Source: Calditrichaceae bacterium
GTDB lineage: Bacteria; Calditrichota; Calditrichia; Calditrichales; JBFXGD01
NCBI GenBank assembly: GCA_050178385.1
Contig: JBFXGD010000090.1
Span: 1-13,639, forward strand
Direction of reading: 5' to 3'
DNA length: 13,639 nucleotides
In this document: in pieces, positions 1-11,158 of the stretch
Layout of the letters: the number at the start of each line of letters is the position of its first letter
How positions within the stretch are numbered: position 1 is the first letter of the stretch
Position numbers and translations under genes: made by a program
The notes under the pieces: generated by a model
The model's database searches: none
Told to the model about the DNA's origin: nothing
Seen by the model: only the letters and a program-made list of their open reading frames with translations

Positions 1-126
1 CGGCATACGTTATAAATTATTAATGGTATACTCTGGCGGTATTATTTTTGAAACATTCTATTTTATCAGAAAGCAGGAAATATATAAAAGGTTCATTAGA
101 GTTTTTGGATACTAACCAATTTATCT

Positions 127-675
127 ATGATGAAATTTATGGCGCTTATGGAAGTGAAATATATTATTGAAACAGAAAGATTATTCCTTAGAGAGTTAAG
201 ATCATCGGATGCAGAAAAAATGTATGATTTAAATTCTGATCCGGATGTTGTAAAATTTACGGGTGATATACCTTTTACTTCTATTGAAAGCGCTCGAGCG
301 TTCTTAGAAAAATACGATGAATATAAAAAACAAGGATACGGCCGTTGGGCAGTGATAACCAAAGATTCCAACGAATTTATTGGCTGGTGTGGGCTTAAAT
401 ACAATGAAGAAAAATATACTGATATTGGATTTAGGTTCTTTCGAAAAGAATGGAATAAGGGATATGCAACCGAGGCCGCAAAAGCCACTTTGGAATATGG
501 ATTTAGTGTCCTGAAGTTAAATGAAATTATTGGACGCGCATCAACAGATAATAAACCTTCCATAAGAGTTTTGGAAAAATTAAAAATGAGCTTTTGGAAA
601 CTGGACAAATGTGATGGGATTGAGAACTCTTCATATTTTAGGATAAGTAAAGCGCAATATGACAGATGGAAATAA
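127..675 (+). CDS. GNAT family N-acetyltransferase (RimJ/RimL type)
   Basis: IETERLFLRE N-terminus, FIGWCGL, acetyl-CoA motif A 'EWNKGYATEAA', and 'NKPSIRVLEKLKM'. The true start may be ATG 148 or GTG 154. Confidence 0.92.
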   Translation: MMKFMALMEVKYIIETERLFLRELRSSDAEKMYDLNSDPDVVKFTGDIPFTSIESARAFLEKYDEYKKQGYGRWAVITKDSNEFIGWCGLKYNEEKYTDIGFRFFRKEWNKGYATEAAKATLEYGFSVLKLNEIIGRASTDNKPSIRVLEKLKMSFWKLDKCDGIENSSYFRISKAQYDRWK

Positions 676-726
676 AACAGAGACTATGATATTTATTCTC
701 AGGTGAATAAATCATCTCAAAGAACC

Positions 727-857
727 GCCTATCAGCAGGTTAAGCTGAATTTAAATGTTTGCTGTTCTTAAGAAAACTTTTTAATCTGCGGAAATGTTGT
801 GTGTCATTTAATGCTGTGGACGTAGAGTTTAAATCAGTTTAACACGCAATGTTTTGT
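727..857 (+). other. Degenerate attC site after the GNAT gene
   Basis: R''-like GCCTATC (727-733, AAC mutated to ATC). Arm GTTAAGCTGAATTTAAA (739-755) pairs with TTTAAATCAGTTTAAC (828-843) with one extra base and one G-T pair. R' GTTTTGT at 851-857. Confidence 0.62.
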
Positions 858-873
858 GCAGGAAAGAAGAAAA

Positions 874-1581
874 ATGGAAGATTATTTGAAAGAAACAAAA
901 CTTCTTGACTTTAACCATCATGATATTGATGTATTAGTTCAGGATCATGGTTGGAAAGGTTTTTCTGATTACGAAAAAATAGGTTCTATTTATCATTTCG
1001 TCCAAAATGACATCGCTTTTGGCTACAACGAATCTGATGACATACCAGCTTCAGCCGTTCTGAAAGATGGTTATGGCCAATGTAATACAAAAGGTACATT
1101 ACTTATGGCTTTGCTCAGAAGCGTCGGAATTCCCAGCCGATTCCATGGTTTCACCATAGACAAAAAATTGCAAAAAGGCGCCATTACAGGCATATCTTAC
1201 CTGTTGGCGCCAAAAAGCATTATCCATAGTTGGGTGGAGGTTTTTTATCAAGATAACTGGTTAAACTTAGAGGGATTTATTCTTGATAAAAAATATTTGA
1301 ACAACCTGCAATGTAAGTTTCCGGATATTACGGGTCCATTTTGTGGGTATGGTGTTGCGACTCCAGATTTCAGAAATCCTAAAATTGACTGGAACGGTAC
1401 TGACACCTACATCCAAAAAGAAGGAATTAATTATGATTTTGGTGTGTATGATGATCCGGATTCTTTTTACAAAGTTCATGGCTCCAATTTAAGCGGTATA
1501 AAATCAATTTTTTATAAGCATGTGGTAAGAAAATATATGAATTTAACTGTATCGAAGATCAGAGATACAAAAATCACATGA
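874..1581 (+). CDS. Transglutaminase-like cysteine protease family protein
   Basis: Catalytic Cys in 'GYGQCNTKGTLLMALLRSVGIPSR', His in 'HSWVEV', and an acidic third residue in 'WLNLEG'. ATG 874 follows a purine-rich RBS; the ORF track start is GTG 856. Confidence 0.9.
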   Translation: MEDYLKETKLLDFNHHDIDVLVQDHGWKGFSDYEKIGSIYHFVQNDIAFGYNESDDIPASAVLKDGYGQCNTKGTLLMALLRSVGIPSRFHGFTIDKKLQKGAITGISYLLAPKSIIHSWVEVFYQDNWLNLEGFILDKKYLNNLQCKFPDITGPFCGYGVATPDFRNPKIDWNGTDTYIQKEGINYDFGVYDDPDSFYKVHGSNLSGIKSIFYKHVVRKYMNLTVSKIRDTKIT

Positions 1582-1665
1582 CAAGGCAAATGCACACGGA
1601 CGGCAAAATGCACCGCTCGCTCCTCGTTCCTCTTTTTAACACCGATGATTACACCACTTTGTGTG
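1575..1665 (+). other. Degenerate attC site after the transglutaminase-like gene
   Basis: R''-like CACATGAC (1575-1582) contains the TGA stop and complements cassette-start GTTTTGTG (851-858) at 6/8. L'' GCAAAT[G]CAC (1586-1595), then CGG/CCG and AAAA/TTTT arms, an eroded L' ATGATTACA (1645-1653) and an eroded R' CTTTGTG (1657-1663). Confidence 0.68.
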
Positions 1666-1666
1666 A

Positions 1667-2056
1667 AGAAATCAGGATGAAATTTTAAATCGTTATCTTG
1701 GAGACATGAAAATTGTATGGGATTCATTTATTGAAAGTTTAAAGGAAGATTACCCACTCTTTTCATCAGAGTGGCGATATTATAATGAAGCAAAAACCTG
1801 GCTTATTAAAATCACAAAAAAGTAAAAAACTAGTTGCTTGGTTTCTATTCTTGATAGAAAGTTTAAAACTACTTGCTATTTTTCTCTAAAAACTGAAGAT
1901 TTAATAAAAAATAGTAATCTTAAAAAAGAATACATTGATCAATTTTTACATGGAAAGAATTACGGAAAAATAAAAGGCGTGACTGTGGAAATTCATGGTT
2001 CAGCTGATTTAGAAATGATCAAAATACTTATAGAAATCAAAGAAAAGTTAAATTAA
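1667..2056 (+). pseudogene. DUF3788-family protein, 5'-truncated with an internal stop
   Basis: The frame of ORF 1838-2056 extends upstream as ...DEILNRYLGDMKIVWDSFIESLKEDYPLFSSEWRYYNEAKTWLIKITKK*KTSCLVSILD..., with TAA at 1823-1825. 'EWRYYN..K.WL.K...K.KT' and 'GKNYGKIKGVTV' match my recollection of DUF3788. Confidence 0.72.
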
Positions 2057-2265
2057 AGTAATAAATATCGAATAATCTCAAGTGAGAAAAGGGGAAATTT
2101 ATATGCCCAAAAATGCAACGAAATGGGGAATATTTTTCGATGCTTTTCTTAGTCGTTGGAGATAGAAATTATTAATAGAACCAACCGAAGTTGATATTTC
2201 TGTTGAAGAAGAAGATTTCCCGCTTGAAGAGGTGGTGTAAAGATTTTTGAATAAACTATAACACA

Positions 2266-2311
2266 GGGTTTTGGGACGAAGGGAGCCGAAGGGACCGGAG
2301 TTCCAAAACCC
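2266..2311. repeat. GC-rich inverted repeat / stem-loop
   Basis: GGGTTTTGGGAC (2266-2277) pairs with GTTCCAAAACCC (2300-2311): 11/12 Watson-Crick plus one G-T, with a 22-nt purine-rich loop. Confidence 0.75.
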
Positions 2312-2458
2312 AACGCCAAATTTTTGACGCCGGCACTGGATTTTTATGTCTAATTCCCCTAAAATTTATTTAAATTGAAGGCGTTACAGGTCAATTTATC
2401 CGGGATTTAATTTGGGAAAACCGCGCCCTTTATGCCAAAACGACCGGGTATACATTAT

Positions 2459-3085
2459 ATGAAACTAGTATTTGCAGGACTAGGAAGAACCGGAACGACA
2501 TCCCTCGTAAAAGCGATGGAGATTCTGGGATTATCAGTTCTGGCTCAGGAAAAACTATTTCGGAACAGAAAGGTCCACAGGAAGGTGAACGATAGCCTGA
2601 GAGGCAAAGCTGATCTTGATCCGGCTTTATTTTCGGGCATTGATGTAACCATCGGATGGCCGCTTTGCTTTTTGTTTAAAGAGCAGCTTGATCGTTTTCC
2701 CGATTCCCATTGTATTCTGAATGTGCGTGAACCGGAGAGATGGTTTGATAGCGTTGAAAAAACCTGGGATCAAATCAGGATATTACGTAAAGCCCGCTAC
2801 GTGCCGGGAATACGTGAAATCAATTCAACTCTGGAATTTGTTCAGGAAAGATTCGGAGGGGCTCCTGAAAAAACACGATGGATTGAAGCGTACAACAATC
2901 ATATAGCTCTGGTAAAAAAAACGGTTCCGTCAGATCGACTGACCGTTTACCAAATTCACGAAGGATGGGATCCTCTATGTGAGGTTCTCGGTATAGCCGT
3001 TCCGGAAGAAGCGTTTCCTGTCAAAAATACCGGTAAAAGCGGTGAGCTTGGGGAAAAACTGAAAAATTTATTCGGAATTGGATAA
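2459..3085 (+). CDS. Sulfotransferase-family protein (P-loop-like, Sulfotransfer_4 type)
   Basis: N-terminal 'AGLGRTGTTSL..AMEILG', 'ILNVREPERWFDS', 'YNNHIALVKKTVPSDRL', 'EGWDPLCEVLG...PEEAFPVKN'. Alternative start ATG 2432. Confidence 0.88.
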   Translation: MKLVFAGLGRTGTTSLVKAMEILGLSVLAQEKLFRNRKVHRKVNDSLRGKADLDPALFSGIDVTIGWPLCFLFKEQLDRFPDSHCILNVREPERWFDSVEKTWDQIRILRKARYVPGIREINSTLEFVQERFGGAPEKTRWIEAYNNHIALVKKTVPSDRLTVYQIHEGWDPLCEVLGIAVPEEAFPVKNTGKSGELGEKLKNLFGIG

Positions 3086-3142
3086 TTTTAAGGTGTCATT
3101 ATTGCTAAGCGAATTAATCAAATGAAAAAGGAATCCTGAACA

Positions 3143-4123
3143 TTGCGAAATGATTTTAATATACTCAATTCGATCGGAAACACACCGTTAGTTGAATTAT
3201 GTCATGTGGTTCCCGACGGCTGCGCGCGTATCCTTCTCAAGCTCGAAAGCCATAACCCGACCGGCAGTATGAAAGATCGTATGGCACGCGCCGTGATCAC
3301 CGGAGCCGTTTCCCGGGGTGAGCTGGTTCCCAAAGGAACCGTTGTGGAATATACGGGTGGCAGTACGGGAACTTCGCTCGCATTTGTATGCGCCGTCATG
3401 GGGTTTCACCTGTCAATTGTTACGTCCGATGCCTTCAGCCGGGAAAAGCGGGATCATATGCGGGCTCTCGGGGCTCAGGTTCTGGAACTCCCGAGCGATG
3501 GGGGAAAAACAACCAAAGAACTTATTCAGCGGATGATCGCCAGAGCGAAAGAACTCAGCGCCTCCCCCAACTCCTTTTTCGCTGATCAGTTTAACAATCC
3601 CGACGCCGCATCGGGTTATGCGTCCATGGCTGAGGAAATCTGGGAGCAATCGGGCCAAAAAGTAAATGCTTTTGTCCAGTCTGTCGGTACAGCACAATGC
3701 ATCACAGGCGCCGCCGGGGCGTTGCGTAAACTAAACAACTCAATCCATATAATCGCTGTTGAACCCTTTGAATCACCCGTTCTCTCAGGAGGCCAACCCG
3801 GTCCCCACAAGATAGAAGGTGTCGGTCCGGGATTCATTCCGCCAATCTGGTTGGAACATCTGGCTGATGAGATTATTCAGATCTCAACAATTGACGCGAA
3901 AGAGATGGCCAGACGTCTGGCAAGGGAAGAGGCCATATTCGCGGGTACATCAACCGGCGCCAATGTTCTGGCAGCCATTAAGGTTGCCGCTCGTCTTGGT
4001 TCCGGGCAGACCGTTGTCACCGTTGCCTGTGATTCAGGTCTCAAGTATTTGTCAACCGATTTGTACAGTTTTACGGATCCTAATGGAAATGAGTACGCGG
4101 TATGGTCAGATAAAGACGCGTAA
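3143..4123 (+). CDS. PLP-dependent cysteine synthase family protein (divergent CysK-like)
   Basis: 'IGNTPLVEL', PLP lysine in 'NPTGSMKDR', 'DQFNNP', 'HKIEGVGPGFIP', 'CDSGLKYLST'. TTG start with an AAGGA RBS. Visibly GC-richer than its neighbours. Confidence 0.92.
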   Translation: MRNDFNILNSIGNTPLVELCHVVPDGCARILLKLESHNPTGSMKDRMARAVITGAVSRGELVPKGTVVEYTGGSTGTSLAFVCAVMGFHLSIVTSDAFSREKRDHMRALGAQVLELPSDGGKTTKELIQRMIARAKELSASPNSFFADQFNNPDAASGYASMAEEIWEQSGQKVNAFVQSVGTAQCITGAAGALRKLNNSIHIIAVEPFESPVLSGGQPGPHKIEGVGPGFIPPIWLEHLADEIIQISTIDAKEMARRLAREEAIFAGTSTGANVLAAIKVAARLGSGQTVVTVACDSGLKYLSTDLYSFTDPNGNEYAVWSDKDA

Positions 4124-4290
4124 CAGGTCAATGAAATTTTTACTCCTAACATCCGTAACGGGAGAGTCTGACCTTCTCATGGGGAGAGTTAAAACGCCTT
4201 TGGGCAGCACAAAACCCGGCGGGGAAGAATTGTTCTATATTTAAAACAAATTATCCAATATTAGAATAAAAATGATAAATAACGGAGATT

Positions 4291-4310
4291 TCTAATCAAT
4301 AGGTTAGGGT
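4291..4310 (+). other. Possible cassette entry core (attI-like or collapsed attC) upstream of the SDR gene
   Basis: TCTAAT-CAATAG-GTTAGGGT. GTTAGGGT (4303-4310) complements the SDR cassette's R'' GCCCTAAC (5155-5162) at 7/8. Confidence 0.38.
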
Positions 4311-4391
4311 GACGCTGCGCGCGCTCATTAATACTATAAAGTTCCAGACAGTTTACTTGTGGTTTCTCTGAATAAACAGTGGGGTAATTCT

Positions 4392-5105
4392 ATGAAGACA
4401 TTAGTACTTGGGGCTAGTGGGGCAACTGGAAGACTAGTTGTATCACAATTAATCAACAACGGCATATCGACTAAAGTATTAATACGATCTAGCGCAACCC
4501 TACCTAAAGAAGTATCGGATAATAATGACATTGAAATCATTAAGGGAAATGTTAATGATTATTCCACAGATCAGATCAGAGATCTGTTAATCGAATGCGA
4601 TTCAGTTGTTTCATGTCTCGGCCACAATATTAGCTTCAAGGGTATATTCGGCAAACCTCATAACCTTGTTTACAATGCAGTAAGAAAAGTCACAGACGTA
4701 CTAAGAGAATCAGATGGTAAGAAGAAATTTATACTAATGAGTACAACTGCGTATACGGATAAGATTCATGGAGAAAAAGAAACATTTGGGGAAAGTATTG
4801 TATTTGCTTTGTTGAAACTACTATTACCTCCTCACACAGATAATGTAAATTCCGGCGACTACTTGTTTAAAATAATCAGAGAATCAGAAAAGTTTGAATG
4901 GATTGCCATCCGTCCTGATTCACTAATTGATGAGACTATCATAGGTGAGTATGAAATCGTAAATATGAAGAAAAGAAGCCCAATATTTGATCCAGGTAAG
5001 ACAAGCAGGGGAAATGTTGCACATCTCATGGTTGAGTTGTTGTCAAATGATAAACTATGGCAATCCTGGAAATTTAAAGGACCTGTGATATATAACAAAG
5101 AGTAA
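4392..5105 (+). CDS. NAD(P)H-binding atypical SDR oxidoreductase (flavin reductase/BVR-B-like)
   Basis: Rossmann motif 'LVLGASGATGRLVV', 'DSVVSCLG', 'WIAIRPDSL', 'TSRGNVAHLM'. ATG 4392 follows a GGGG RBS. Confidence 0.9.
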   Translation: MKTLVLGASGATGRLVVSQLINNGISTKVLIRSSATLPKEVSDNNDIEIIKGNVNDYSTDQIRDLLIECDSVVSCLGHNISFKGIFGKPHNLVYNAVRKVTDVLRESDGKKKFILMSTTAYTDKIHGEKETFGESIVFALLKLLLPPHTDNVNSGDYLFKIIRESEKFEWIAIRPDSLIDETIIGEYEIVNMKKRSPIFDPGKTSRGNVAHLMVELLSNDKLWQSWKFKGPVIYNKE

Positions 5106-5154
5106 GTTGATTACCTATGTATAAAATATTCGTCATGAATAATAAAAAAGAAAA

Positions 5155-5255
5155 GCCCTAACAAACGCTAAAACTTGATTCGGTACTCTAAAGCCTGGAT
5201 CTACAGACGTCAGCCTGGAAACACAGGCACCTCACAAGTTAAGCGTCTGTCAGGC
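5155..5255 (+). other. attC site after the SDR gene
   Basis: R'' GCCCTAAC (5155-5162). L'' ACGCTAAAACTTG (5165-5177) pairs with L' CAAGTTAAGCGT (5235-5246) with one extra base and one mismatch. Inner GGTAC/GCACC arm. R' GTCAGGC (5249-5255). Confidence 0.8.
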
Positions 5256-5286
5256 AGAAATAGACAATCAGAGAGGGTTCTCAAAT

Positions 5287-5709
5287 ATGAATAAATTTGA
5301 TTTCTTAATCGGTGATTGGAATCTAAAATATTCAGTACCAAAGTCATCTTTAAGTGCTGAATCTAGCGGTTCTGGTGAAGGCACATTTTATAGAGCGCTA
5401 AACAATAAATATGTTTTTTTTGACTATAAAGCTCAATTAACTACCGGTTCAGCACAAGCTCACGGAATTTTTGCTAAAGATGGAAGCCGGGATAATTATA
5501 AATATTGGTGGTTTGATGATTCGGGTGCTTTTTCAATCGCGTCCTGTAAATTCATAAAAGATAATCTTTTATTTATGATTTGGCATGACTCGTGTTTAAT
5601 ACAAACTTTTGAATTAATCAATCAAAATTATATTGTATTAATTATGTCTCAAGCAATCGATAATCAAAATTTTGAACCTGTTCTAAAAGTTGAATTTTCA
5701 AGAAAATAA
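5287..5709 (+). CDS. DUF1579-like beta-barrel protein (hypothetical)
   Basis: 'FDFLIGDW' start, 'G.GTF...LNNKYV..DY' and 'YKYWWFDDSG' resemble DUF1579. GAGAGGG RBS. Bounded by two attC sites. Confidence 0.68.
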   Translation: MNKFDFLIGDWNLKYSVPKSSLSAESSGSGEGTFYRALNNKYVFFDYKAQLTTGSAQAHGIFAKDGSRDNYKYWWFDDSGAFSIASCKFIKDNLLFMIWHDSCLIQTFELINQNYIVLIMSQAIDNQNFEPVLKVEFSRK

Positions 5710-5721
5710 GTATGCTTGCCT

Positions 5722-5826
5722 GCCTGACAATCGCTTGAGGCGGATACGAAAACGTCCGGTATGAATTCGAAGAATTTTGTGTTTTGCCAAGTTCGTCGGT
5801 GCGGCGCTTAAGCGTGGCCGTTAGAA
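5722..5826 (+). other. attC site after the DUF1579-like gene
   Basis: R'' GCCTGAC (5722-5728). L'' CGCTT[G]AGGCG (5732-5742) pairs with L' CGCTTAAGCG (5805-5814) with an extrahelical G. Inner ACGAA/TTCGT arm. R' GTTAGAA (5820-5826). Confidence 0.82.
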
Positions 5827-5840
5827 TACAAGGGGAAAAA

Positions 5841-7028
5841 ATGAAGAACTCACAAGAGACATTCCTAACAAGATTTTTGAAGATGGAAGCGTCGGGTGGC
5901 ATAATTCTAATGATCGCTGCTGTGATCGCTTTGATTCTTGCCAATACTCCCTTTAAATTAATATACGCTTTATTGATAGATACCCCGGTAGAAATTCGAA
6001 TAGGTCCTCTGGAAATTGCAAAACCATTGTTACTGTGGATCAATGACGGACTAATGGCAATATTCTTCTTTCTGGTCGGATTGGAATTAAAGCGAGAGTT
6101 AGTTGAAGGCGAGTTATCCAATAAAAGAAATATAATTCTTCCAGGTTTGGGAGCTATTGGGGGAATGTTGTTTCCGGCGTTAATCTATACATATTTCAAC
6201 GCTGGAGATGCAACGGCAATGAAAGGTTGGGCAATTCCAGCAGCCACTGATATTGCATTTGCTCTGGGAATCTTATCTTTGCTTGGCTCAAGGGTGCCAA
6301 CAAGCATAAAAATATTTCTGACATCCCTTGCAATCTTTGATGATATCGGTGCAATCATCATTATTGCACTTTTTTACACCGAAAAGATTTCTCTAGCTGC
6401 ACTAATTGTTGTAGTCTGTTGCATTCTGATACTTGCCTTGATGAATAGGAAAAAGATAGAAGCCAGGAGCGCTTATGTCATGATCGGGAGTATCATGTGG
6501 GTTGCAATGTTAAAGTCCGGTGTTCACGCAACCTTAGCGGGTGTGATTCTGGCGATGTTTATTCCAATGAAATCCGAAACACGAGATAATTATTCACCAC
6601 TAAAGAGCTTCGAGCATGATTTACATTTTTCGGTAGCATACATCATCTTACCAATCTTTGCATTTGCAAATGCGGGGATTAGTTTTGTCGGCCTGGGAAT
6701 TGATGAACTCTTTCATGAAGTTCCATTAGGCATCGCGCTGGGCTTATTTTTCGGAAAACAAATTGGCGTATTTGGCTTGTGTTGGTTGGCCATTAAGAGC
6801 AACATTACTGAACTGCCAAAAGGGATGTCCTGGTTATCATTATATGGATCTGCGGCTTTATGTGGCATAGGGTTCACGATGAGCCTGTTTATTGGTTCAT
6901 TATCATTTGAGGAAACGGGCATAAATTTATTGTTTGATGAGCGTCTTGGGATCATATTTGGATCATTGGCATCGGGTATTGTTGGATATCTTATTTTGCG
7001 GAGAAGTCTGCGTTTTAACCCTGCATGA
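5841..7028 (+). CDS. nhaA: Na+/H+ antiporter NhaA
   Basis: 'WINDGLMAIFFFLVGLELKRE', 'GWAIPAATDIAFALG', the DD pair in 'AIFDDIGAI', 'SGVHATLAGV', 'GKQIG', 'CGIGFTMSLFI'. ATG 5841 follows an AGGGG RBS; the longer TTG 5784 start lies inside the attC. Confidence 0.97.
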   Translation: MKNSQETFLTRFLKMEASGGIILMIAAVIALILANTPFKLIYALLIDTPVEIRIGPLEIAKPLLLWINDGLMAIFFFLVGLELKRELVEGELSNKRNIILPGLGAIGGMLFPALIYTYFNAGDATAMKGWAIPAATDIAFALGILSLLGSRVPTSIKIFLTSLAIFDDIGAIIIIALFYTEKISLAALIVVVCCILILALMNRKKIEARSAYVMIGSIMWVAMLKSGVHATLAGVILAMFIPMKSETRDNYSPLKSFEHDLHFSVAYIILPIFAFANAGISFVGLGIDELFHEVPLGIALGLFFGKQIGVFGLCWLAIKSNITELPKGMSWLSLYGSAALCGIGFTMSLFIGSLSFEETGINLLFDERLGIIFGSLASGIVGYLILRRSLRFNPA

Positions 7029-7141
7029 AGCAGACGGGCGGGCAAAATCCCCGCGGGAAGTACTCGGTCGCGTTTTAGGTGATCTCTGCTTATGAATTCT
7101 TATGCGCAAACGCCTGTGCGCCGCTTATGCTCTCATTATAC
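7013..7141 (+). other. attC site after nhaA (R' mutated)
   Basis: R'' TTTTAAC (7013-7019) complements cassette-start GTTAGAA at 6/7. L'' GCAT[G]AAGC (7023-7031) pairs perfectly with L' GCTTATGC (7123-7130) apart from the extrahelical G. Inner GGGCG/CGCCT arm. R' reads ATTATAC (7135-7141) instead of GTTATAC. Confidence 0.8.
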
Positions 7142-7487: not shown

Positions 7488-8333
7488 ATGAAAAACCTTA
7501 TTTGCATCTCCCTGCTTTTTATCACAACCGGCCTCTTTGCTGCGCAGTCGGTTATTGTCCAAGCCGTAGGAACGGCAAGCATGGGCGATACGAAAAGCAA
7601 GAAAGAGACAATGGATGAGGCTAAAGCCAACGCCTTGAGAAACGCGGGCGAAAATGCGGGGATTTATATTTCATCAGAAACGAAGATCAAAAATTATATA
7701 ATGGAAAGCGATCTCGTGGAAGCGTTCTCGAAGGCCGATGTGAAGATCCTGAGCGAAACCGGCGAATGGTTCAGGGATGAATCATTGGGCGACAGCTACA
7801 GGCTGACGATAATGGCTGAAGTTACGCCAAAGGAAATGAAAGAGAAGCCGGGTAGAAACGATATGTCAGATGACCCGAACGCTTTGCTGAAAGTCAGGTT
7901 GTGGACTGAAAAAAATCAGATGGAATTCAAAGCAGGCGAAAAAATTGCTTTGTTTATAAAAGGAAACAAGCCGTTCTTTGCGAGAGTAGTCTATTTTCAG
8001 GTTGACGGAACGCAGGTCCAGTTGCTGCCAAATCCCTTTAGAAAGGACAATTATTTTAACGGTGGTACGGTCTATAATCTGCCTTCGGGAACGGATGGCT
8101 ATGAGCTGACTGTTGAGCCGCCGTTCGGAGCTGAAAAGATCGTATTGTATGCGAGCACCGGCGAACTGGGCGATTTGAAGGTCGAGGATGCGGGAGCCGT
8201 TTATACCGTCGGGGAGAAACCTGAAGATACCGGTATCAAAACAAGAGGAATTAAAATCACGAAAAAAGAGGGCAAAAGCACTCAGGCAGCCGAGTTTGAC
8301 GAGCAGGTTCTGGAGATCAGGACCGGCAGGTAA
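7488..8333 (+). CDS. Secreted protein with an N-terminal FlgT_N/LPP20-like domain and a C-terminal DUF4384 domain
   Basis: Signal peptide MKNLICISLLFITTGLFA. 'AVGTA...EAKANALRNAGENAGIYISSET' is FlgT_N-like. 'FKAGEKI.LFIKGNKPFFARVVY...DG..VQLLPN...LPSG..YELTVEPPFGAEKIVLYAS' is DUF4384. GGAG RBS. Confidence 0.82.
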   Translation: MKNLICISLLFITTGLFAAQSVIVQAVGTASMGDTKSKKETMDEAKANALRNAGENAGIYISSETKIKNYIMESDLVEAFSKADVKILSETGEWFRDESLGDSYRLTIMAEVTPKEMKEKPGRNDMSDDPNALLKVRLWTEKNQMEFKAGEKIALFIKGNKPFFARVVYFQVDGTQVQLLPNPFRKDNYFNGGTVYNLPSGTDGYELTVEPPFGAEKIVLYASTGELGDLKVEDAGAVYTVGEKPEDTGIKTRGIKITKKEGKSTQAAEFDEQVLEIRTGR

Positions 8334-8377
8334 ATGACTGTTCATTCAGATTAATGGTGTAAATCCCGAGGTGAAAA

Positions 8378-11158
8378 GTGCATAGAAAAAGTATTTCAAT
8401 CAAAATATTTTTAGTTTTTATTTTAATTTCCGCTTTCTTTCAGCCTGCTGCCGCGGCGGATTCGCCTGAAGTATTTGTACAGACCGGCCATGCAAATGGA
8501 GTGAAACTAATGGCTGTTTCGCCTGACGGCAGGTTTCTTGTCAGCGCCGAAACACTGGGATATCAAAAGCTATGGGATATATCCAGCGGCAGGGAATTAC
8601 GGACTATTAAGTTTGGCGACACGGTTCACGGATTGGAATTTATTGATACTGAACGTTTTATCATACTGGGCGCTGATAAAGGCGAGATTTTTAATTCCGC
8701 CGGTGAAAAACTTGAGACGCTGTCGTTGCCGGTATTGTCGGCTTACGGGAAAAAATCGGTCACGCCAAATCTCAAATACTTGTGCGTTGATAATTCGCTT
8801 AACGGAAGCGGCGAGATAACTCTTTTTGATATCAAAGATGGCTCCAAAATCCGGCTGCCGGAAGACAGAGACGATTACAGCTCTCCATTGTTGGATTTAG
8901 GATGTGGCTTCTTTGGATTTTTCTACGACAGTTACCGCGATGATAAAAGCGATATCAATCTAATCGGGAATACCGCCTATGTAATTTATGATCAGGAGCT
9001 GAATGTTAGAAAAAGAGGGCTGATAAAAGGCCAAATCTATATAGGGGCCCAGCTGAAAGTCGATAATGATCTAAAGTATGTGTATAAAAACCTTAATTTC
9101 AATGATAATTCCAATATTACAGTATACGATCTGGATACAGGAACTGCTGTAAGGACGCTTCCGGGGAAAAAAGGGGCGCAGTTCGAATTGGTGGAAAATA
9201 AAATTTTTACAAGCATGATCAGGCTTCGCGGAGATGGGGGCAAAAGCGTTTATGATATCGATTTCACCGTCTACGAACTACTCGGTAACGGCGGCTACAA
9301 AGAAAAGAAAATGTTGTTTACAGATCTGAACATTCTAAATCCGTTCAAAATCACACCAAGGGGACAGATCATCCTGAATAAGGCTAGAGATTTGAATAAT
9401 CGGGATTATGCTACGGACCTTGAATTATATGATATCAATGCCGGGAAAGAAGTTCGTAAATTCGGAGTCAAGCCCATTGTGTATCAGCAGGTCGCTTATG
9501 AAAACGGCCGTCTCCTGAATATTGAGAAGAGTTTTCATAGAACCGATAACATTATGAAAGTATGGTATAAATATAATATCTGGAACGCTAAAACAGCAGG
9601 ATTGGAAGTTTTTGAATATTCTCACAGCACGGAGGATGTTTATCAGGATCGAAACAACAAATGGATAATTAGAAATGCGAAAGATTTTTACCGGCAAGTG
9701 CCGGCGGAGTTCTTTGCTGATCCATACGAAGGCAGGTACAAAGAGTATTATGACAGCGCTGTCGGGTATCCGATATTTTTTAAAAGCTCTTCCGGTGATA
9801 TTTTAAATTATAAATTGGATGCTATCTTTGTAGATGCTACTTATATCTCTGTGGAGAGGAAATCGGATAAAACTGAAGTGGCGAGATTTTATGCTTTTTC
9901 AGACGGCGAATGGATCGTAATAACTCCGGAAGGATATTTTAACGCATCCCCGAACGGAGCTAAATATATCAATGTCAGAATTGGGAATCAGGTTTACAGC
10001 ATTGATAATTTTTATGAAAAATTTTATAATCCGCTTTATGTCGCTGCGGTGCTTCAGGGTACTGAAGCAAGACCTGTCGCGGATATCAGAGCGGGCGTCG
10101 CCTTACCTCCGCAGGTGAGAATAATTTCTCCCGAAACGAACGCCGAATTTAAGAGCGAGCAGGTTGCGATCACCATAACGGCAAAAGATATGGGTGGCGG
10201 AATTGACGAGATCAGGCTCTATCATAACGATAAAGCGATAGGTGAAGAAACCAGAGGGGTTAAGCTCACGTCCAAAATCGCGGAAAGCACAAAAACTTAC
10301 AATGTCATGCTCGTTGACGGGATAAATACCTTCAGGGCTGTAGGATTCAGCAGAGACAGGACAGAATCAAATCCATCCGAAATCGTCATAAAACTGCTCG
10401 CGCCTGAAAAAGAGACATCCATGTATGTTCTTTCCGTGGGGATTAACGGTTACAAAAATCCGGCGCTGGATTTAAATTACGCTGAACCTGACGCAAAGGC
10501 TGTGGCTGAGTTTTTCAGGACCGGCGGGACCGGTCTTTTTAAAAAGGTGGTGATCAAAGATGTTTATAACGAACTGGCCACAAAAGAAGGAATTCTGCTA
10601 AAGATGCAGGAGCTGCGGAACACACAACCACAGGATGTTGTATTGATATACCTTGCGGGACACGGGGAGAACGTTAACGAGAACTGGTATTTTATTCCTC
10701 ACGAACTGGTTTATCCTGAAAGGGAAGATGATGTTATAGCAAAAGCCATTTCTTCAGAAGAGCTCACATCAGCCATCAAGAATATCGCGGCGCAGAAAAT
10801 ACTTGTGCTCATCGATGCGTGTAAATCAGGCGCGGTGCTTCTGGCATTCAGGGGATTTGAAGACAGAAAAGCTCTGTCACAATTATCCAGGGCGACCGGG
10901 GTTCATGTGGTAGCAGCCTCTGCAAAAGATCAGTTTGCGGCTGAAGTAAAGGATCTTGGCCACGGGGTATTCACATATACACTGCTTGAAGGCCTCAAAG
11001 GCAAGGCAGCGGGGGCGGGCGAAAACGTAACCGTGAGGAAGCTGATGAGTTATATAGAAGAGCAGCTTCCCGAACTGACTAAAAAATATAGACAGGAAGC
11101 GCAATACCCTGTTGTAGATTCAAGAGGAATGGATTTCCCTCTGGTGCAGGGGAAATAA
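8378..11158 (+). CDS. Secreted WD40/beta-propeller + Ig-like + caspase (peptidase C14) protein
   Basis: Signal peptide ending AAAA|DS. WD40 repeat 'QTGHANGVKLMAVSPDGRFLVSA.....KLWDISSGRELRT', linker 'GEWIVITPEGYFNAS', Ig-like 'PPQVRIISP...AKDMGGGIDEIRLYHN'. C14 domain 'VLSVGINGY...LNYAEPDA' with dyad 'YLAGHG' (H762, nt 10661) and 'IDACKSG' (C815, nt 10820), plus 'GHGVFTYTLLEGL' and 'QYP'. GTG start with a GAGG RBS. Confidence 0.92.
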   Translation: MHRKSISIKIFLVFILISAFFQPAAAADSPEVFVQTGHANGVKLMAVSPDGRFLVSAETLGYQKLWDISSGRELRTIKFGDTVHGLEFIDTERFIILGADKGEIFNSAGEKLETLSLPVLSAYGKKSVTPNLKYLCVDNSLNGSGEITLFDIKDGSKIRLPEDRDDYSSPLLDLGCGFFGFFYDSYRDDKSDINLIGNTAYVIYDQELNVRKRGLIKGQIYIGAQLKVDNDLKYVYKNLNFNDNSNITVYDLDTGTAVRTLPGKKGAQFELVENKIFTSMIRLRGDGGKSVYDIDFTVYELLGNGGYKEKKMLFTDLNILNPFKITPRGQIILNKARDLNNRDYATDLELYDINAGKEVRKFGVKPIVYQQVAYENGRLLNIEKSFHRTDNIMKVWYKYNIWNAKTAGLEVFEYSHSTEDVYQDRNNKWIIRNAKDFYRQVPAEFFADPYEGRYKEYYDSAVGYPIFFKSSSGDILNYKLDAIFVDATYISVERKSDKTEVARFYAFSDGEWIVITPEGYFNASPNGAKYINVRIGNQVYSIDNFYEKFYNPLYVAAVLQGTEARPVADIRAGVALPPQVRIISPETNAEFKSEQVAITITAKDMGGGIDEIRLYHNDKAIGEETRGVKLTSKIAESTKTYNVMLVDGINTFRAVGFSRDRTESNPSEIVIKLLAPEKETSMYVLSVGINGYKNPALDLNYAEPDAKAVAEFFRTGGTGLFKKVVIKDVYNELATKEGILLKMQELRNTQPQDVVLIYLAGHGENVNENWYFIPHELVYPEREDDVIAKAISSEELTSAIKNIAAQKILVLIDACKSGAVLLAFRGFEDRKALSQLSRATGVHVVAASAKDQFAAEVKDLGHGVFTYTLLEGLKGKAAGAGENVTVRKLMSYIEEQLPELTKKYRQEAQYPVVDSRGMDFPLVQGK

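Follow-up and report, generated by a model that had tools for sequence, protein, structure and literature searches.

Introduction

The enzymes of caspase subfamily C14B characterised so far cleave past arginine or lysine, a point on which the sequence-only reading that preceded this analysis agrees with PMC5756287 and 10.1101/2024.10.24.620036. Surveys have recorded exported bacterial caspase homologues since 2012, and WD40-bearing ones as well (PMC3501461); caspase-DUF4384 fusions made up 23 among 473 cyanobacterial proteins in PMC8283722 (see also PMC7475262), and kinase-DUF4384 fusions are on record (10.1101/2025.01.12.632604). Here we describe a two-gene operon at positions 7488 to 11158, plus strand, of a 13,639-nucleotide stretch of DNA, hereafter the window, which is the entire 13.6-kb contig JBFXGD010000090.1 of a Calditrichaceae bacterium (assembly GCA_050178385.1; 3.9 Mb, 94% complete, 3201 open reading frames (ORFs)). 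Its first gene encodes P0001, a member of DUF4384, and its second P0002, a member of C14B; both products are predicted to be exported and both carry a conserved arginine motif. Our literature search, outside which most subscription journals lie, returned no paper that describes this motif or assigns the pair a function.

With MaOC1, TbMCA2, AtMC4, Yca1 and MALT1, all C14B enzymes, P0002 has in common the His-Cys dyad, the caspase fold, an acidic S1 pocket and a basic residue in the loop past the catalytic cysteine, and with MALT1 also Ig domains joined to the protease (PMC5756287). It differs from them in its predicted export, its variable N-terminal propeller, an alanine where a pocket cysteine is found, and the partner encoded next to it, which has a matching site; among the characterised C14B enzymes compared, none has such a partner in the available text.

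Other systems resemble the pair in arrangement. In DdvA-DdvS of Myxococcus xanthus an extracytoplasmic caspase-like domain is fused to a repeat sensor, and a signal-dependent cut of a flexible linker has been proposed, self-cleavage being likewise only a proposal (PMC11506125). DdvA, however, is a membrane anti-sigma factor with TPR-CHAT, whereas P0002 is a soluble C14B enzyme with neither membrane part nor sigma factor, and the window ORFs include no membrane anti-sigma factor with TPR-CHAT, no linked extracytoplasmic function (ECF) sigma factor and no linked membrane transducer. In the type III-E Craspase (Csx29/Csx30) a caspase-like protease cleaves a co-encoded protein, and one group of Csx30 C-terminal domains is in fact DUF4384, often protease-fused (10.1101/2022.08.17.504292); Craspase differs in that its protease is of the CHAT type, is triggered by RNA and cuts after Met or Leu, and there are no CRISPR or CBASS genes among the window ORFs (Cas genes were not searched for genome-wide). 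Type III-B SAVED-CHAT/PCaspase/PCi offers a signal-switched bacterial C14 enzyme with a co-encoded protein, PCi, that is both cut and inhibitory (10.1101/2023.06.23.546230), and type IV Thoeris an Arg-specific caspase, PsCaspase, whose cut is flanked by small residues (10.1101/2024.10.24.620036). Both of these caspases differ from P0002 in being cytoplasmic, promiscuous executioners that answer to nucleotide signals, with no export and no DUF4384 mentioned in the available text. By analogy our pair may work like DdvA or like PCaspase/PCi, while being a member of neither. In the literature compared, the enzymes with known substrates are cytoplasmic defence proteins.

Results

Conserved arginines in both proteins

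The sequence-only reading had proposed that the two products share a nine-residue motif, TRGIKITKK in P0001 (8241-8267) and TRGVKLTSK in P0002 (10250-10276), as a common cleavage or docking site, and both peptides translate at these coordinates. We aligned the best 120 of 138 matches to P0001 and the best 120 of 743 matches to the C-terminal half of P0002, the latter including the query and being 66-100% identical. The motif arginine is retained in 119/120 sequences of each family, and the expectation that it be conserved in homologues was thus borne out. In the caspase family (motif TRGVKL, 10250..10267, placed by homologue alignments and model in a loop between two Ig strands) Arg626 gives way to lysine once; the residue past it, P1', is alanine in 60/120 and glycine in 57/120, and is followed by a hydrophobic residue, lysine (110/120) and a further hydrophobic residue. 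Thr625 is present in 74/120 and Thr631 in 10/120. In the P0001 family (motif TRGIKI, 8241..8258, also located in a model) the counts are 113 for Thr252, 119 for Arg253, 115 for Gly254, 90 for Lys256 and 45 for Thr258, with variable flanks. A second arginine of P0002, Arg825, stands in the loop past the catalytic cysteine (Arg825-Gly-Phe, 10850..10858) within an almost invariant AFRGFEDR; it too is kept in 119/120 and is a candidate self-processing site.

Since the close homologues of P0002 are 66-100% identical, 11 more distant caspases from related loci were aligned too, 8 of them at 24-33% identity (counts for distant caspases, representatives, loci, fusions and subfamilies were made by eye). 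Down to 24% identity the arginine of the Ig loop is present in 10/11 and that past the cysteine in 8/11, while a ninth distant caspase has the latter one column earlier. Divergence is also considerable among 57 DUF4384 sequences (the query and 56 of 150 representatives; mean column identity 27%), where Arg253 is among the few columns conserved at 90% or above, and T-R is found in 20/20 P0001-related proteins from GTDB loci.

Extent of the motif and chance level

Taken alone, the pair of peptides is not striking. Its 6/9 identities compare with at least six identities in an ungapped nine-mer in 47% of 1000 shuffles and in 43% of 600 random pairs of like-sized proteins from the genome; a BLOSUM score of 33 or more was reached in 4.4% of shuffles and 6.2% of random pairs, the observed score being 36 and the tail counted at 33. 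The strict motif pattern, written after the fact, matches 2/3201 genome ORFs, P0001 and P0002 only, and the relaxed TR[GAS][IVLM]K is found 7 times where 9.6 would be expected. When the two families were compared profile to profile, the motif region was the only match (E 0.013 with a probability of 3%, and E 0.0017 with a probability of 16%). The single-pair match is weak; the case for the motif rests on conservation. The nine-residue form proposed earlier did not survive, its TxK tail being unconserved and the match of the pair near chance, and what stood is a conserved core, R-[GAS]-hydrophobic-K-hydrophobic, that is shorter than nine residues and, judging from the alignments, wider than this operon. 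DSRGM (from residue 914), put forward as a further site, was rejected as a shared one: Arg916 is present in 81/120 homologues, with Lys in 32, and among the 11 distant caspases Arg is found in the query only.

The motif in other architectures

Related proteins place the motif elsewhere. Seven long DUF4384 representatives include three DUF4384-WD40-Ig-caspase fusions and two fusions of a kinase with DUF4384, and the Arg-Gly loop is present in all five; another, a repeat protein with an OmpA-like end, gave no clear match to it. In the three caspase fusions the Ig loop is absent and RG[IV][EQ][VI] follows the catalytic cysteine. A distant caspase-DUF4384 fusion has FRG past its cysteine and TRDV ahead of the last DUF4384 strand, in neighbouring TPR-CHAT proteases an insertion within the CHAT domain holds [YF]RG[LVI]x[IV] (5/5 translated, all close kin), and two lipoprotein-type homologues have an extra Arg-Gly right behind the signal peptide. 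A second DUF4384 subfamily is without the Arg loop in 6/6 full-length proteins. Since the Ig loop is absent in the fusions and the Arg loop in this subfamily, neither fold needs the loop. On sequence grounds the motif is a family-wide signature, found also past the catalytic cysteine of related caspases and in TPR-CHAT proteases.

Genomic context

We inspected 23 GTDB loci with a relative of P0001, named records among them coming from Delongbacteria, Nitrospirota, Deltaproteobacteria and others. The two genes recur as neighbours, as the sequence-only reading had supposed: a C14 gene directly adjoins the DUF4384 gene in 8/23 loci and lies within the fetched stretch in 12/23, and in three proteins the two are fused. 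TPR-CHAT genes occur in 5/23 (four recognised by Pfam, L011 by translation) and add two loci, bringing those with a clan CD protease, C14 or CHAT, to 14/23. CHASE2 cyclase genes lie downstream in 3/23; our own locus has no CHASE2 cyclase in the window, and two CHASE2 genes are on other contigs of the genome. Within the organism's own class a full-length P0001 match was found in 2/86 genomes and none in the single genome of the same genus, and in a DNA comparison 2 of 30 relatives matched, in the caspase part only. The two-gene unit is patchy and probably mobile. A plasmid search returned 31 records, all below 60% identity.

Four genomes (G007, G008, G010 and G027) had at first appeared to hold a TRG-bearing DUF4384 protein but no caspase. 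This was dropped when a family profile found caspases in 4/4; the PF00656 search had missed clear caspase homologues in 5/5 rechecked genomes (these four and G077, contig C42), and as the family profile recovers what PF00656 misses, blanks in the PF00656 search are unreliable.

Individual loci showed further arrangements. At L095 (G017:C276, 2040-12754) two WD40-Ig-caspases are encoded in tandem; their C-terminal parts are nearly identical and their propellers differ, which suggests swappable sensor domains. They are followed by a large membrane sensor with, by eye, a CheA-like end. At L082 (G045:C39, 1.8-4.4 kb) a P0001 homologue with TRGVKI immediately precedes a sigma-70-type gene and two uncharacterised genes, the last gene having a Lon-protease-like start by eye and running past the contig end. 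Four loci (L034, L029, L083 and L094) encode a 500-residue exported protein whose C-terminal DUF4384 has TRGFI at the corresponding place; this gene is upstream of a transglutaminase-like gene in an envelope lipoprotein cluster, and in G027 it and a WD40-caspase gene point away from each other. In L056, L057 and L059 a caspase, a motif-less DUF4384 and, by eye, a lytic-transglycosylase-like gene form one run, a hint of a cell-wall link for the motif-less subfamily. Finally, the caspase of L003 (12404-14614), which is exported and has an FGE-sulfatase-like end, lies close to a P0001 homologue and carries KGIKV, Lys replacing Arg, in its post-Cys linker.

Architecture of the two proteins

Gene 1 (7488..8333, plus strand, 281 residues) and gene 2 (8378..11158, plus strand, 926 residues, GTG start) are 44 bp apart, exactly as first described, and a Shine-Dalgarno-like sequence precedes each. 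Signal peptides were called by eye from a basic N-region, a hydrophobic stretch and small residues ahead of the cut, and on this reading the predicted Sec signals of both proteins hold: residues 1-18 of P0001 (7488..7541), followed by a conserved AQS in which S21 is invariant and Q20 present in at least 90% of 90 aligned homologues, and residues 1-27 of P0002 (8378..8458), where the model has a helix at 3-20. Two close P0002 homologues look like lipoproteins. Behind its signal P0001 has a FlgT_N/LPP20-like alpha/beta domain (FlgT_N at 23-112, E 0.0016, below cut-off) and the DUF4384 beta-sandwich (PF14326 at 147-224, E 6.7e-22, 77.8 bits against a curated cut-off of 27).

P0002 continues with a beta-propeller region at about residues 31-515 (8468..9922), a candidate sensor, that is evident in the model and in the homologue alignment, its WD40-type Pfam matches being weak and below cut-off. 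The propeller is poorly conserved and variable in length, homologues range from 517 to 1147 residues, and their consensus is mostly undefined there. An Ig-like domain follows at about residues 576-675 (10103..10402; Big_7 at 578-626, E 1.4e-7, and model), then the C14B catalytic domain (10412..11155), recognised by Pfam (Peptidase_C14, PF00656, at 685-915, above cut-off), by homologues and by structural alignment. The dyad reported earlier, His762 (10661-10663) and Cys815 (10820-10822), is intact, both residues being present in 120/120 homologues, and AFRGF does begin at residue 823 and DSRGM at 914. P0001 and P0002 are the sole DUF4384 and C14 matches of their genome. Contigs from three DNA runs represent strain variants and list no frame-breaking change in either gene, cover being patchy in 2/3.

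Structure and active-site pocket

The AlphaFold model of P0001 has Arg253 as the last residue of a helix (245-253); a loop (257-265, pLDDT <50) comes next, and then the last strand. In that of P0002, Arg626 is inside a loop (623-634, pLDDT <50) between Ig strands and Arg825 starts a stretch (825-841) that is again below 50. Low pLDDT suggests flexible motif loops without proving exposure; the concern that the motifs might be buried was met in so far as, in both models, the arginines fall within or at the edge of loops of low confidence. The modelled catalytic domain aligns with AtMC4 at Z 20.5 (rmsd 3.2 over 210 residues), with MALT1 at Z 18.9 and also with Yca1, the range over the three being Z 18.5-20.5. 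P0002 has the C14B traits of a His-Cys dyad, a caspase fold and an acidic S1 pocket. Orthocaspases are p20-only enzymes that lack a p10-like part; in P0002 PF00656 was matched over 5-225 of 233 and model strands and helices continue past the cysteine, which leaves the status of a p10 part dependent on definition.

The putative S1 residues are Asp705 (10490-10492), Asp813 (10814-10816) and Glu856 (10943-10945). Asp705, on helix 1, and Asp813, two residues ahead of the cysteine, show no exception across 79 homologues, and both line up with S1 aspartates of AtMC4 and Yca1, whose roles in metacaspases are described in PMC4357240, and specificity for Arg/Lys is therefore predicted. Arg specificity of P0002 is thus supported by invariant acidic residues; Glu856 would be the equivalent of MALT1 Glu500, judged from its position only. 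The second pocket cysteine (TbMCA2 Cys92), a trait of canonical type I/II metacaspases, is absent, its column being occupied by Ala702, which is invariant in the 79 homologues.

Broader structural searches added little. Foldseek gave no convincing relative of P0001 and returned only propellers for P0002, VIA-align matched P0001 to common beta-sandwiches only, and phmmer of the catalytic domain against the PDB found one match at E 0.95. An analogy with the bait region of alpha-2-macroglobulin is unsupported, a domain of that protein being simply the best of these common beta-sandwich matches (Z 8.8). Complex prediction for P0002 575-926 with P0001 126-281 scored 0.00 in 2/2 runs and is not used as evidence.

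Discussion

The architecture of the pair, the dyad, the acidic pocket, the conservation and loop position of the arginines, the gene linkage and the fusions are established here, and the shared site is a real, conserved and testable feature. As to what it does, on balance we favour, by a modest degree of belief and from alignments and models, that the motif arginines are P1 processing sites of an exported, signal-gated C14B protease whose dedicated substrate is the DUF4384 protein. P0002 would be an exported Arg-specific protease held as a zymogen; its variable propeller may gather protease molecules upon binding a periplasmic or cell-surface ligand, and the activated enzyme would then cut past Arg in exposed R|[GAS]-hydrophobic-x-hydrophobic loops. 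It would cleave itself at Arg825, past the catalytic cysteine, and at Arg626 in the Ig domain, and cut the co-exported DUF4384 protein at Arg253. DUF4384 could be seen as a reusable 'cut-me' module, free in P0001 with an LPP20/FlgT_N-like domain and, in other proteins, fused to a caspase or making up the outer part of a membrane kinase, and its cut would relay a signal or damp the protease. A conserved site common to protease and partner names three peptide bonds open to testing. It would also give DUF4384 its first function and open a way to ask how the CHASE2 cyclases, DUF4384 kinases and sigma factors beside such genes might be switched.

A number of points weigh against this proposal. The homologue sets are related, not independent. 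No C14 match or noticed CHAT gene is present in 9/23 loci, several of which reach contig ends, and CHAT was not searched for in all of them. The loop-less DUF4384 subfamily adjoins a caspase in 6/7 loci, all of one class, so the pairing does not need the motif; the full post-Cys motif is present in 1/6 of these caspases, and a loop-less DUF4384 beside caspases mostly without that motif would fit joint loss. Co-variation of the TRG motifs, which the sequence-only reading had suggested looking for, was not found: across 11 loci the P1' residue of the partner agrees with that of the Ig loop in 6 and departs from it in 3, one further locus being mixed and one lacking the residue, and agreement in only 6/11 amounts to no co-variation within loci. 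The Arg-Gly of P0001 ends a modelled helix and could be a structural cap. Loss of the pocket cysteine lowers activity in TbMCA2/AtMC9 (PMC5756287), and P0002 has Ala702 at that place. Lastly, many proteins with consensus-like sites are left uncut by MALT1, which makes likeness to a motif a poor predictor of cleavage (PMC9463181).

The strongest of the other explanations, possible although we think it unlikely, is that the motif is a docking strand or pseudo-substrate, which would bind as a short beta-strand, either in the active-site cleft or on an exosite, and be cut slowly or never. The Ig and post-Cys loops would then keep the enzyme off, and the DUF4384 protein would be a bait-type inhibitor or a scaffold. 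Such a role would suit the extent of the shared part, which spans P1 to P4' (R, small, hydrophobic, K, hydrophobic) with a strand-like hydrophobic alternation, and the caspases beside motif-less DUF4384, which keep a [GN]ISP-hydrophobic stretch past the cysteine mostly without the Arg. There is precedent as well, in that MALT1 requires no cut in its post-Cys loop (PMC4357240) and PCi inhibits PCaspase while also being its substrate (10.1101/2023.06.23.546230). Against docking, it is the Arg that is best conserved, with a small residue next to it as in known C14B cut sites (10.1101/2024.10.24.620036), and the motif loops are predicted to be disordered.

A wider and decidedly speculative idea is that exported proteases of clan CD (C14B, CHAT) belong, together with DUF4384 proteins, to a network of proteolytic signalling in the periplasm that runs on a single common code. 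Processing of caspase-9 exposes an IAP-binding N-terminus. In the same way a cut past Arg might expose an N-terminus G-hydrophobic-K-hydrophobic to act as a tethered ligand, which might bind the protease, DUF4384 or a receptor (CHASE2 cyclase, kinase or anti-sigma factor), and the two-gene unit might conceivably be a mobile input cassette for receptors encoded elsewhere. A tethered ligand would explain the prime-side conservation and the movement of the motif between unrelated loops; even so, we hold every part of this idea to be improbable, at one and the same level.

Slightly less probable still is that P0001 and P0002 are cut by another Arg-specific protease and serve as a tripwire that a foreign or upstream enzyme sets off. 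Such an enzyme might be a TPR-CHAT, a gingipain-like C25 protease of the host, or one that a predator or competitor brings in. The motif-bearing TPR-CHAT genes of 5/23 related loci and two C25 genes in the organism's own genome would supply candidates, and SAVED-CHAT does cleave and thereby activate PCaspase (10.1101/2023.06.23.546230). This genome, however, has no CHAT match at 94% completeness and P0002 is its sole C14 match, in the fusions motif and C14 share one chain, and MaOC1 processes itself unaided (PMC5756287). Least probable of all is a structural or accidental likeness with no common ligand, in which the motif would cap a helix in DUF4384, form a surface turn in the Ig domain and, past the cysteine, be part of an ordinary active-site loop. 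In its favour, the single pair matches near chance, the genome shows no enrichment of the relaxed motif, the profile comparisons gave low probabilities (3-16%) and both host domains are beta-sandwiches that might share descent. Against it, the Arg-small-hydrophobic core recurs across four structural settings, none of the folds depends on it, and it is relocated in the fusions.

Neighbouring genes in the window

Positions 1-7100 hold unrelated plus-strand genes of uneven GC, namely GNAT, transglutaminase-like, sulfotransferase, PLP enzyme, NAD-binding protein and NhaA. We do not call the operon itself an integron cassette, as 1/10 intergenic stretches folds well (z -3.55) and no integron integrase in the assembly scored above cut-off. 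The stretch in question, at about 5155-5256, is a long hairpin, and several genes of positions 1-7100 are followed by attC-like sequences, so this part of the window is possibly a decayed cassette array adjoining the operon.

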